From Spirochaetia bacterium (lineage in GTDB: Bacteria; Spirochaetota; Spirochaetia; WTKD01; G963693115): 40,519 nt of DNA. The stretch is taken from contig CBDDCA010000001.1 of the NCBI GenBank assembly GCA_965226055.1, positions 1-40,519 on the forward strand, given 5' to 3'. Every line of letters begins with the position of its first letter. Within the stretch, counting starts at the first letter, position 1. The notes under the pieces were generated by a model. That model worked only from the letters and a program-made list of their open reading frames with translations, did no database searches and had not been told where the DNA came from. The position numbers and the translations under genes were made by a program. Positions 13,496-16,892 of the stretch are shown piece by piece.

Positions 13496-14191
13496 GCAAT
13501 GCTTACGCTGAATTCTCCAGCTTTCTACGCCTCAAAAAATCGTTACTCCATTTTATATAAAGTTGCGCTTACGCTGAATTCTCCAGCTTTCTACGCCTAG
13601 AAATAAAAAATATGTCATGTGTTTATTGTTGCGCTTACGCTGAATTCTCCAGCTTTCTACACCATTAAAGATAATGCCTTTTGATTTCCGATTGTTGTGC
13701 TTACGCTGAATTCTCCAGCTTTCTACACCTTCGGAAAAGAACTAGATTCTAATATCATAGTTGTGCTTACGCTGAATTCTCCAGCTTTCTACACCGAGGA
13801 GAAAATTCTCCACCTTCTAAATTTAGTTGTGCTTACGCTGAATTCTCCAGCTTTCTACACCCAAAAAAAGCTAATAATTCACTTGCTTATAGTTGTGCTT
13901 ACGCTGAATTCTCCAGCTTTCTACACCACTATTTCTGGATCATATTTCATATTTCCTGTTGTGCTTACGCTGAATTCTCCAGCTTTCTACACCTATTAAT
14001 TTTTTACAAAAAATAGAAAAACCGTTGTGCTTACGCTGAATTCTCCAGCTTTCTACACCTTTGAGCTGCTTGTAGAACTAAACCTCCACGTTGTGCTTAC
14101 GCTGAATTCTCCAGCTTTCTACACCTAAATTTAATAAATTATGGAATTCTCTTTTGTTGTGCTTACGCTGAATTCTCCAGCTTTCTACACC
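13496..14191 (-). CRISPR. CRISPR array with 11 repeats and 10 spacers, type VI-B-like
   Basis: The + strand repeat GTTGTGCTTACGCTGAATTCTCCAGCTTTCTACACC (36 nt) recurs every 66 nt; all spacers are 30 nt and unique. Variant and truncated repeats lie at the left (trailer) end, so transcription is on the minus strand: GGTGTAGAAAGCTGGAGAATTCAGCGTAAGCACAAC. Confidence 0.98.
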
Positions 14192-14298
14192 AGAGCTCAA
14201 CTAAAGTACAACGATATACATTATTATATCATAAAACAATAAGAAAAAGTACTAAATATTAGTACTTTTTTCATTCATTTTGCCATTTTTTCAAACAA
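14192..14298 (-). promoter_or_regulatory. CRISPR leader with extended -10 promoter
   Basis: AT-rich. Minus-strand TGATATAAT (TGnTATAAT) at 14223-14231 points into the array. Confidence 0.6.
14244..14270 (-). terminator. Hairpin or terminator downstream of the cas13-like gene
   Basis: Perfect 12-bp inverted repeat AAAAAGTACTAA-ata-TTAGTACTTTTT, with a T-rich tail on the minus strand. Confidence 0.55.
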
Positions 14299-16892
14299 TT
14301 ATCTATTTTTACTCATTTGATATTTTTTTATTCCTTCTCTACGCTGTTCTTTTCTGCGTTCTTCTGCTTGCTTTAGTCTGGTACTCAGATCATTTTTTAT
14401 ATGTAATTCTTTTGCTACCGCATCAATAATACGAATATACTCATCCTTTTTCTCAAAAATATCTTTCATACTTTCATGAAGAATATCATCACGTATATCC
14501 TTCAATTTCTCTTTATCGTCATGCTTAAGTTGCTTTATGATTTTATCAAATTTAATGTATTTACCTTTATGAGATGCTGTTTCCTTTGTCTTCTCATCCA
14601 TATTCTTGAGTACTATATATTCAATATCAAATATTACTTTTAATGCTTCAATACCCAAATGTCGAAATTCAGGGATAATATACTGTATGAAATATTCCAT
14701 CAAATCCTTACATTGCTTTTCTTGTTTTTCAAAACGTGATTCCACTTCGTGTAATCCATGAATAAGATTTCTTTTATAAAATACATAACTTAGTTTAGTA
14801 AGATAATGGAAAGGAATGGAAAATTTTTTGAATTTTCCTTTAATACTCCCTTGTATAATAACTTCTAGTTTTTTCATTTTTGTCTTACCTAATGGCACTT
14901 CAATACTAAACCTACTATCCTTATCGTAGTCCTTCTCATGAGAAAATTCTGTGTTTACCTTATCAGAAAATTTTTTGCTTAGATTTACTGCAATTTCCAG
15001 TAACAACCTATCCTTCGCATAGTAATCGGCAGCATCGTACACCTGTTTCCTCTCTTCCTTATCATCAATAGTATGTATATCTTCCTCTATTAAGTGCTTT
15101 ATTTTCTCATGGTAATTTTTATAGTCCAACTCCATATCTTTTGTATACTTCTGATACTCCTCATTTCCTTTCTCTCTCCCCCACTGCTTTGAGAGCCAAA
15201 CAATATTACGAAGATCATTTGTATGTGTTTTTTTAGTGGATGCTTGTCTTTCTGTGGTCTATTGAAGCGAAAGCTGTGCTTTTTATACACAACCTCTTGC
15301 TTATCAATAAGTGCTGGCGTATCCTGCTCCAGTGCCGTTGTTACACTCTGTACTATACAATCAAGCGTTTGATTGAGAGATGGTTTTATATACTTTTCAC
15401 AATAGGCATATTTTTCTGGGAAAGCATTGCATACTTTTTCTCTAAACTGCTGTACAAAATTGGCAGTATAGAAGTGCAACATAGCACTTATTTTTTGATA
15501 TTCTAATGGATATAGAGGATCATTTTCCTCTGTCTCCTTTAATACTCCTTGCAAGGACCATAATATAAACTGTACTTGTGTCGATGGATATTTCTTTTCA
15601 TCTATCTCATGTACTTTCTTATACTGCTCATGTCTATATGCAATCTTTTTCTCTATAGTAGCTGGCGTATAGTCATCCCTCATACAACGTGGAAGACTGT
15701 TCCCGATATCCAGGTTTTTATCATTCATATTCATACTCTGCATCTGCTCAATATCCTTAACAATAGATGCTACAATAGCTCCCTGCTCGCTCCCCTTTAA
15801 TATCATCTTTGCGATCCGTAGTAAATGTGTTCTTCGCATCCTAAACTTTATCCATTGTTCTGTATCTTTTTTCCTCACTCTACACCAGTAATGATCACCT
15901 AGCCTAAAATAATTACCATTCTTAGAATCAAACACAGGAATATTGATACTTTTCTTCTTCTTATTTTCCTGTATTCCTGTTGTGGCAAATTCCAAATTTT
16001 TTATCTTAGACTCAAGCGTAATCCATCGTATAATCAAGTTATCCACTATATAAGGACTTAGAGGCCTTTGGCTATCCTCATAGTTTTCTTTTGCATAGTT
16101 AGGACTTCCTTTAATAGGTTTATTAATATAGTCTATAATCTCACACATGAGGCTCCATACTCTCTCATTTTCCTCTTCCTTTCTGTCTTTTTTATTCTTT
16201 TTATCTTCTTCATCTTGCGTCTCAGATGGATGAGCTTTTACTTTATCGCTTTTTTTCCTTCCATAGCATTTAATAATTGCCATAATAGCATCAAATACAT
16301 CTTGATTCTCTGTTTTTTCTCTATTTGCAAATGCAAATCTATTGCAAAGAGCATAGGCTCTGTCTTTTTCTAGGCCTATACATAAAAAACAAAGAAGACC
16401 TAGCAAAGTAAAATAATTATTCTTAAAAAAATCTTTTTTATCCAAAGGATGAGAGTGCTCTTTTTGCTCATATTGAAGTAAGGCAGAACAATAACAATTA
16501 TATACTATCTTTTGTGTATTTTCCTTTATAGGAATATTTTTATGCTCAAGATGAGATAGATAATGTCTCATATTTTTATACAAAATATTACATTCATTGT
16601 ACACACTCTCTACTTTTTTATTGACTGCATTAAGATTAGTACTGTTTAATGTACCTTCTTTCTGTATAACAGATTGCTTCATATGTGTATACAATTCCTT
16701 TGATGACACCCTAAAATCCACAAATGAAATACTAGCTATATTCTCATATATATGCTCTGCTTCTATAGCCAATACTGCTCTTTCCCAAAAGCGTAGAGTA
16801 TCATTCTCTATTTCGGTACTGTAAGCAGTATGAGAAGGTGGTGGAGTATTTGTATTTTGCTTGTTGTTATTTTTATTATTGTTATTATTCAT
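14299..16892 (-). CDS. cas13: Compact Cas13 (type VI-B/bt/X-like) effector, about 864 aa, split into two ORFs by one -1 frameshift
   Basis: HEPN1 RHYLSH (16551-16568, aa 109-114) and HEPN2 RDDILH (14476-14493) lie near the two termini. Segments FTLLGLLCFLCIGLEK, LMCEIIDYINKP, IEALKVIFDIE and KYIKFDKII recall Cas13b/X blocks (from memory, not aligned). The gene adjoins a 36/30 array. Confidence 0.85.

Follow-up and report, generated by a model that had tools for sequence, protein, structure and literature searches.

A probable Cas13b-lineage CRISPR-Cas locus in a Spirochaetia genome and the rare effector family to which it belongs

Introduction

Cas13 proteins, the effectors of type VI CRISPR-Cas systems, are the principal tools for programmable targeting of RNA, and with each distinct clade have come different properties in terms of size, flanking sequence, and collateral cleavage. 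Within the lineage that matters here, Cas13bt proteins measure approximately 775 to 805 amino acids (aa), and repeats of the form GTTG...CAAC are a hallmark of Cas13b. Cas13bt3, PbuCas13b, and Cas13h1 are all of the type in which the CRISPR RNA (crRNA) carries its repeat at the 3' end. Here, we describe a gene for a Cas13b-like effector and its adjoining CRISPR array, found in a 40,519-nucleotide (nt) stretch of DNA from a Spirochaetia bacterium (GenBank assembly GCA_965226055.1, contig CBDDCA010000001.1); this whole stretch is referred to below as the window.

The described set of effectors comprises Cas13a to Cas13d, Cas13bt/X/Y, and Cas13e to Cas13j (PMC9554183; excerpts of PMC13288109). 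Hu 2022 (PMC9554183) reported clades of 740 to 1300 aa with 36-nt repeats and 30-nt spacers, mostly without cas1 or cas2, and linked an architecture free of an N-terminal domain to crRNAs with a 3' repeat. According to the excerpted text of the 2025 classification (PMC12669027), VI-E, VI-F, and the variant VI-B3 have since been added, VI-F being confined to the spirochete genus "Brachispira."

Against this background, we consider it quite likely that the window holds a type VI CRISPR-Cas locus of the Cas13b lineage, consisting of a single effector of 864 aa, a leader that carries its own promoter, and a co-directional array. The effector function itself we infer by analogy, from the architecture, a single weak match to a profile, and a single fold match of low confidence.

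Organization of the effector gene and CRISPR array

The window is the entire contig C1 of a 2.25-Mb, six-contig assembly that is 89% complete. The candidate type VI locus is made up of the following features:

13496 to 14191, minus strand: CRISPR array of 11 36-nt repeats and 10 30-nt spacers, with degenerate repeats at the gene-distal end
14192 to 14298, minus strand: leader, that is, the gene-to-array interval, containing a hairpin with a U-run and an extended -10 element
14299 to 16892, minus strand: cas13b-like effector gene, present as two open reading frames (ORFs) in the assembly and encoding 864 aa with the T8 allele
14476 to 14493, minus strand: C-terminal HEPN-type motif RDDILH, residues 801 to 806 of the 864-aa reading, conserved in the family
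15228 to 15234, no strand assigned: homopolymer (T7 on the plus strand, A7 on the minus strand) at which the frame breaks; contigs of runs X1 and X2 have one T more
16551 to 16568, minus strand: N-terminal HEPN-type motif RHYLSH, residues 109 to 114, within the stretch that matches PADLOC model PDLC02153

In the assembly, the effector is encoded by two overlapping minus-strand ORFs, 15099 to 16892 (597 aa) and 14299 to 15135 (278 aa). A single base added at the A7 run joins the two into one ORF of exactly 864 aa, the size that a first-pass annotation, made from the sequence by a model, had estimated for the bridged gene. That annotation had further placed RxxxxH motifs near both termini, a co-oriented array with 36-nt repeats and 30-nt spacers at a distance of 107 nt, and a repeat end reading ...GTAAGCACAAC, all of which our measurements bear out.

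Ten spacers, every one of them 30 nt long, separate 11 repeats that measure 36 nt each, and this regular period of 66 nt is no chance feature. On the minus strand, the repeat consensus is GGTGTAGAAAGCTGGAGAATTCAGCGTAAGCACAAC, with ...GTAAGCACAAC as its terminal bases. Eight of the 11 repeats are identical, and the three that are most distant from the effector gene (repeats 9, 10, and 11) carry 1, 2, and 4 substitutions, respectively. The effector stop codon occupies 14299 to 14301, and repeat 1 begins at 14191, leaving the gap of 107 nt between gene and array, which share one orientation. Within this leader, an extended -10 element (TGATATAAT, 14223 to 14231) is located approximately 30 nt ahead of repeat 1 and is conserved in L001, a homologous locus described below. 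Since the degenerate repeats lie at the far end of the array and the -10 element lies in the leader, transcription of the array most likely proceeds from the leader, in the same direction as that of the gene.

The leader also contains a hairpin followed by a U-run (approximately 14241 to 14275), 3' of the effector stop codon, with a folding energy of -11.9 kcal/mol (z, -5.6). This structure, strong in the window, is weak in L001, and we therefore rejected it as a conserved terminator.

Homologous proteins and loci

Six proteins reached E ≤ 0.001 when HMMER was run in full against 1.84 billion representative proteins, and a word-indexed search of 5.8 billion sequences returned four entries, namely, the window's own ORF and three related clusters at 90% identity. 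Searching with the most distant member added two proteins, both belonging to a compact branch, while neither a word-indexed profile search nor a scan of JGI metagenomes yielded additional members. A tandem paralogue and one full-length member from a cluster bring this very rare family to approximately 11 proteins, which fall into three branches. Type A (859 to 988 aa) includes the window protein, P0002 (71% identity), a 988-aa copy, and P0003 (42%); type B (971 to 1018 aa) includes P0004, P0005, and P0009, at 28 to 33% identity; and the compact branch (774 to 824 aa) includes P0007, P0011, and P0012. When the compact branch was compared by hhalign with an alignment excluding it, the two were joined with a probability of 99.8% (E, 2.8e-29) over 672 columns. 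The window protein had been called compact in the first-pass annotation, a description that no longer fits: at 864 aa, it is mid-sized and has a sister branch that is compact.

In a 10-row alignment, R109 was present in all rows and H114 in nine, the exception being P0002, and the C-terminal arginine and histidine were found in each of the nine rows that extend that far. Judged from this alignment, the RxxxxH pair near both ends is the conserved core of the family. In eight members, the first motif lies at residues 63 to 117 and the second 57 to 63 residues from the C terminus, in proteins without an N-terminal domain. The third RxxxxH of the window protein (RMRRTH, at residue 351) is not conserved across the family.

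The loci examined were the window, L001 (two genes), L002, and contig C3 of the window's own genome; P0003, P0007, P0009, P0011, and P0012 lie outside this set. All five members with an examined locus adjoin arrays of related 36-nt repeats. They come from two related genomes, each with two paralogous modules of effector and array. P0002 and P0005 belong to one Spirochaetia metagenome-assembled genome (MAG), and the finding that the locus closest to the window resides in a Spirochaetia MAG agrees with the probable spirochetal origin that had been proposed from the sequence.

L001 contains type-A genes in tandem (6001 to 12013). The first, encoding 859 aa, has lost its HEPN1 histidine, reading RNYLSI instead of the RN(Y/F)LSH found elsewhere, and is trailed by a solitary degenerate repeat (8747 to 8782). 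The second, encoding 988 aa, carries an internal duplication of roughly 100 to 130 residues and ends 106 nt ahead of a 37-repeat array, the repeat of which differs from that of the window at three positions. In L002, a 26-repeat array (repeat GTTGTAGACAGCTGTAGATTTCAGCCGAAGCACAAC, identical to the window's at 30 of 36 positions) lies ahead of a 971-aa type-B gene. Finally, contig C3 (31 to 5347; locus L003, 1 to 4548) provides the window's genome with a second, intact module, which is of type B: at least 31 repeats (GTTGTAGACAGCTGTAGATTTCAGCCGAAGCACGAC) reaching the contig end are followed by the intact 1018-aa P0004, and in the three gene-proximal repeats the terminal bases are CACAAC, not CACGAC. 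Among the tested neighbors of the window, L001, L002, and C3 loci, there was no cas1, cas2, or other cas gene.

The repeats are predicted to fold into an inner hairpin of 4 to 6 pairs that is closed by a terminal stem of 4 to 5 pairs, formed by the paired repeat ends, with folding energies of -10 to -11 kcal/mol and z values of approximately -3.1 for both type-A repeats. All family repeats end in (C/G)AAC or GAC, and their ends pair; type-B repeats start with GTTG, and the type-A repeat starts with GGTG, breaking one terminal pair. As far as the compared loci indicate, the repeats co-vary with the protein branch. Rfam matched none of its CRISPR repeat families here, returning two chance rows.

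The 101 spacers of the four arrays gave no BLAST match longer than 23 nt in the window's own genome. Against 50,697 phage records, the spacers of the window array produced one chance match (27 nt; E, 0.7) and those of the C3 array produced none, and two 24-nt spacer cores had no exact match in viral contigs. Identical spacers are found in pairs at positions 15 and 17 of the L002 array and at positions 9 and 10, as well as 13 and 14, of the C3 array, which points to local duplications inside the arrays.

Relation to the Cas13b lineage

Two lines of evidence connect the family to Cas13b, one from sequence profiles and one from predicted structure. First, in five of eight members, the N-terminal segment (the first 190 to 300 residues) matches the stretch from approximately position 54 to 219 of PDLC02153, the 903-position PADLOC model of Cas13b. 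The segment E-value is 1e-5 for the window protein and 6.9e-7, 1.7e-9, 2.8e-9, and 2.7e-4 for the others.

Second, when P0002 was modeled with AlphaFold2 (AF2) from six sequences, the model retrieved five matches at E ≤ 0.001 in Foldseek, all of them Cas13, with the next match at an E-value of 0.43. Three of the five are to Cas13bt3 (3.2e-12, 2.9e-11, and 3e-9), one is to PbuCas13b (3.3e-5), and one is to PDB entry 8WCE (3.8e-5), which is Cas13h1 according to the excerpted description of that structure. The alignments extend over 770 to 1013 columns, those to Cas13bt3 over 770 to 823.

Several results weigh against this assignment. The PDLC02153 matches are weak, scoring 17 to 35 bits over approximately 130 to 160 residues of a 903-position model, and none of five C-terminal segments and none of three type-B N-terminal segments matched PADLOC Cas13b. 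With full-length proteins, PADLOC reported Cas13b for one of eight and for neither window ORF. A six-frame search of the window's own genome with PDLC02153 returned nothing at E ≤ 10; since the same kind of search did match the control genome of Methanosarcina acetivorans, weak matches to this model should be taken with caution. Phmmer and family-profile searches of PDB sequences returned no Cas13 at E ≤ 10, both window ORFs, the family members, and the tested segments had no match in Pfam or NCBIfam, and the ESM Atlas offered just transposase-like rows below the 0.9 threshold. The P0002 model is of low confidence (predicted local distance difference test [pLDDT] score, 54.3; predicted template modeling [pTM] score, 0.32), and its template modeling (TM) scores to Cas13 chains are 0.13 to 0.22. 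A model of the window protein's own C-terminal 313 aa, again of low confidence (pLDDT, 61.2; pTM, 0.52), retrieved no HEPN or Cas13 chain, the best match being to an unrelated protein at an E-value of 0.69. Moreover, the assembly itself reads T7 at the homopolymer, which breaks the gene.

Because the C-terminal model retrieved no Cas13, we read the fold evidence as favoring kinship across the N-terminal and central portions, without its demonstrating a juxtaposed HEPN pair. Profile and structure comparison, by which the first-pass annotation had suggested that its proposal be checked, returned Cas13 for five of eight N-terminal segments and for the P0002 model but not for the C-terminal segments and model. 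Its overall proposal, a Cas13b-lineage effector with patchy resemblance to known members, nevertheless finds backing in the N-terminal PADLOC matches, the exclusively Cas13 set of Foldseek matches, the two motifs, the 36-nt/30-nt geometry, and the lack of cas1 and cas2 beside the gene.

Novelty and alternative explanations

We rate it somewhat better than an even bet that the window gene represents a previously undescribed deep branch of Cas13b-like effectors, with three sub-branches and with modules that, in the window's genome, appear to be coupled to a type II Cas1-Cas2 pair by way of a common repeat end. Under the current classification, such a branch would be a distinct variant within the Cas13b part of type VI. 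If this holds, the members of 774 aa would add new, compact RNA-targeting candidates. Sequence comparison covered Cas13b, Cas13bt3, and Cas13h1, with Cas13e, Cas13f, Cas13g, and Cas13i of Hu 2022 and the Cas13f of VI-F falling outside it. Judged by the lack of HMMER matches, Cas13b proper, Cas13bt3, and Cas13h1 are excluded as close kin.

The family might, on the other hand, already have a name, as one of the Cas13e to Cas13i clades of Hu 2022, as VI-F, or as a patented family, in which case the biology would stand and the novelty would be small. We find this doubtful, although it retains an appreciable chance. The family's size range of 774 to 1018 aa falls within those given by Hu 2022, whose clades also match it in the 36-nt/30-nt geometry and the lack of an N-terminal domain and have crRNAs with a 3' repeat (PMC9554183), and the excerpted 2025 classification does place a type VI subtype in a spirochete genus (PMC12669027). 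However, no HMMER-level relatives outside the approximately 11 members were found in the protein collections, the members come from ENA/NCBI assemblies, and none of them is named in any source database. High identity to a described Cas13, which would speak against novelty, was found with none of the PDB chains of Cas13b, Cas13bt3, and Cas13h1, these giving no match at all. A literature text search with six repeat fragments, with Cas13 and spirochetes, and with Brachyspira and Cas13 left the family undescribed, the repeat fragments leading to no CRISPR paper and the Brachyspira query to none. Among 400 other genomes of the phylum, none matched the family profile and none matched the repeat pattern. 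In 35 genomes from one genus of the phylum, an N-terminal profile gave only chance matches, namely, two weak ones, of which one was a 64-aa frame with stops and the other lay in what we take to be an Obg-type GTPase.

The frame break raises the question of whether the window copy works at all. Alignment with intact homologues localizes the break to the A7 run, where the protein reads ...KDKHPLKK and then THTNDLRNIVWLSKQWG.... Logan contigs of four public runs were aligned to the gene; X1 and X2, from two samples of one study, cover the break, and X4 and X5 stop short of it. In both covering runs, one T is inserted after 15227, giving T8, with the proviso that contigs can mask minor alleles at the T7/T8 site. 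Because T8 in the contigs of both covering runs restores the frame, the break is most likely a homopolymer miscount in the assembly, and the gene is probably intact in the organism.

Were the break real, the window copy would be a decaying pseudogene and the C3 paralogue would do the work. That the assembly reads T7, that the last three repeats are degenerate, and that the genome has a second, intact system would all fit such a scenario, as would the loss of the HEPN1 histidine from the L001 tandem copy, given that it documents the decay of duplicates in this family. Yet, besides the T8 allele of both covering runs, the ORF is, a single base aside, open over 864 aa with both motifs intact, and eight of the 11 repeats are identical, which makes decay improbable in our estimation.

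We regard it as very improbable that the A7 run tunes the amount of full-length effector, whether as a site of programmed -1 slippage by the ribosome or as a switch for phase variation. The upstream frame, CTA AAA AAA C, does contain A AAA AAA, which has the pattern of a slippery heptamer, and a -1 slip would produce precisely the join, ...PLKKTHTND..., that homologues show. In the intact P0002, however, ...PLKETHKND... is encoded in a single frame, no slip being required, and the T8 allele is present as DNA in two runs.

The practical lesson of the most likely reading, a miscounted homopolymer, is that a "split gene" such as this one probably reflects assembly error rather than biology. It also modifies an earlier suggestion, according to which the split ORF would hide the effector from annotation pipelines: the split is indeed there in the assembly, but it is likely an error, and intact homologues are missed too. 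As the family is unseen by Pfam and NCBIfam and nearly unseen by PADLOC, pipelines overlook even its intact ORFs.

Finally, we give hardly any credence to the idea that the effector is another HEPN-type ribonuclease (RNase), abortive-infection or toxin-like, that sits beside the array without being guided by it: Cas13b sequence likeness is restricted to the HEPN1 region, and the C-terminal model found no Cas13, but the pairing of gene and array recurs at every examined locus, for proteins that are only 28 to 32% identical and with repeats that co-vary with the branch, and the 770 to 823 columns of the Foldseek alignments to Cas13bt3 reach beyond one HEPN domain.

Proposed mechanism and spacer supply

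For the type VI system that we favor, we propose the following mechanism. Transcription of the array from the leader would yield spacer-then-repeat units, and, by analogy to Cas13b, Cas13bt, and Cas13h, the crRNA would have the 36-nt repeat as its 3' end, behind a 30-nt spacer. Once the spacer had paired with a target transcript, the RNase site, made up of the two RxxxxH (HEPN) motifs, would be activated; it is from family resemblance that we infer such guide-dependent RNA cleavage by the HEPN pair.

With no cas1 or cas2 beside the type VI modules, the type II Cas9 system in the same genome may provide the Cas1-Cas2 that inserts new spacers in trans. This genome has one cas1 and one cas2, both on contig C6 (locus L016, 9330 to 18945), where their neighbors are a 77-repeat array (36-nt repeats; spacers mostly of 30 nt) and, on the opposite strand, a cas9 of 1067 aa. 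Since the two ORFs flanking this locus that were tested gave no PADLOC match, the system looks like type II-C. Its repeat is identical to the type-B repeat at 20 of 36 positions, including 15 of 18 at the end, and just one of 20,000 composition shuffles reached the overall identity. The repeat end common to the type II and type VI arrays reads ...TTTCAGCC..CACAAC. The arrays also have the same polarity relative to their degenerate end, and they have no spacer in common.

Because the type II array shares the 36-nt/30-nt geometry and the repeat end, spacer uptake in trans through the type II Cas1-Cas2 suggests itself as a plausible route for the type VI arrays, which, arguing by analogy, we would put at roughly even odds. 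A precedent exists in Flavobacterium columnare, in which, according to the excerpted report, a VI-B array acquires spacers via the Cas1 of a II-C system and the 36-bp repeats of the two systems are alike at their leader-distal GTTGT end (PMC8092290). With two type VI arrays, a Cas9 array, and a shared repeat end, the genome described here is a natural case for studying the spacer supply of type VI systems free of cas1 and cas2.

Neighboring genes and other features of the window

Two further features border the module:

12274 to 13266, minus strand: hsdS, encoding the specificity subunit of a type I restriction system, immediately after the array
16899 to 16928, minus strand: promoter-like site TTGATT-18-TATAAT, a consensus match only, 7 nt upstream of the ATG

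The number of promoter-like sites in this region does not exceed that in shuffled sequences. In three loci, the next gene after the Cas13-like module is an hsdS, namely, in the window (12274 to 13266), L003 (4761 to 5921), and L002 (8983 to 10125). The window and C3 copies are 88% identical over 246 residues and differ in their first half, which looks like either an exchange of target-recognition domains among hsdS copies or a duplication of the module that included hsdS. Just upstream of the effector gene, 17064 to 17621 encodes a Fe2+ transport protein (PF10634; E, 1.6e-25), which has no relation to the CRISPR module, nor is it conserved beside the homologues.

Elsewhere in the window, 75-nt tandem repeats (approximately 80 to 86% matches) are found at 424 to 698, 1971 to 2408, and 21634 to 21814, within the long minus-strand ORFs 212 to 3685 (1157 aa) and 21439 to 26049 (1536 aa); their presence suggests that these two ORFs encode large repeat-containing proteins. 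A 33-nt tandem repeat (8.5 copies, 85% matches) occupies 28825 to 29104, within the minus-strand ORF 28679 to 29254.

Comparison with known systems

Cas13bt3/Cas13X.1 (variant VI-B3; PDB entries 7VTI, 7VTN, and 8FTI) provides the top structural matches to the family. The two share HEPN motifs near both termini, the absence of an N-terminal domain and of cas1 and cas2, and an array of 36-nt repeats and 30-nt spacers. They differ in that neither phmmer nor the family profile matched Cas13bt3 (7VTI, at E ≤ 10), in that the structural identity is 13 to 14% with TM scores of 0.18 to 0.22, and in that Cas13bt is approximately 800 aa long (Hu 2022, PMC9554183), versus 864 aa for the window protein and 859 to 988 aa for the type-A branch. 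By close sequence kinship and size, the window protein thus falls outside Cas13bt/Cas13X (VI-B3).

With canonical Cas13b (VI-B; PbuCas13b, 6DTD), the family shares an HEPN1 region that matches the Cas13b model in five of eight members, but the window protein is approximately 200 to 300 aa shorter and, unlike at canonical Cas13b loci, no csx27- or csx28-like gene was recognized among the tested neighbors. Cas13h1 (8WCE) is related to the family by Foldseek and, in the excerpted description, has a 3'-repeat crRNA and HEPN domains that flank the recognition (REC) lobe; the same description gives it an N-terminal domain and a catalytic arginine at position 200, whereas the first motif of the window protein begins at residue 109, and the two show no sequence match. 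Overall, the motif layout, the 36-nt/30-nt geometry, the predicted repeat fold, and the missing adaptation module of the window locus agree with the Cas13b lineage, these being features that Hu 2022 described for Cas13b, Cas13bt, and Cas13e to Cas13i (PMC9554183).

As regards the supply of spacers, the closest parallel is F. columnare. Going by the excerpted account of that species, both cases combine, in one genome, a type VI array free of cas1 and cas2 with a Cas9-Cas1-Cas2 system, and in both the 36-nt repeats of the two systems resemble each other at the leader-distal end. The genomes described here differ in having two type VI loci each, as well as in a similarity between type II and type VI repeats that extends over approximately 21 nt.

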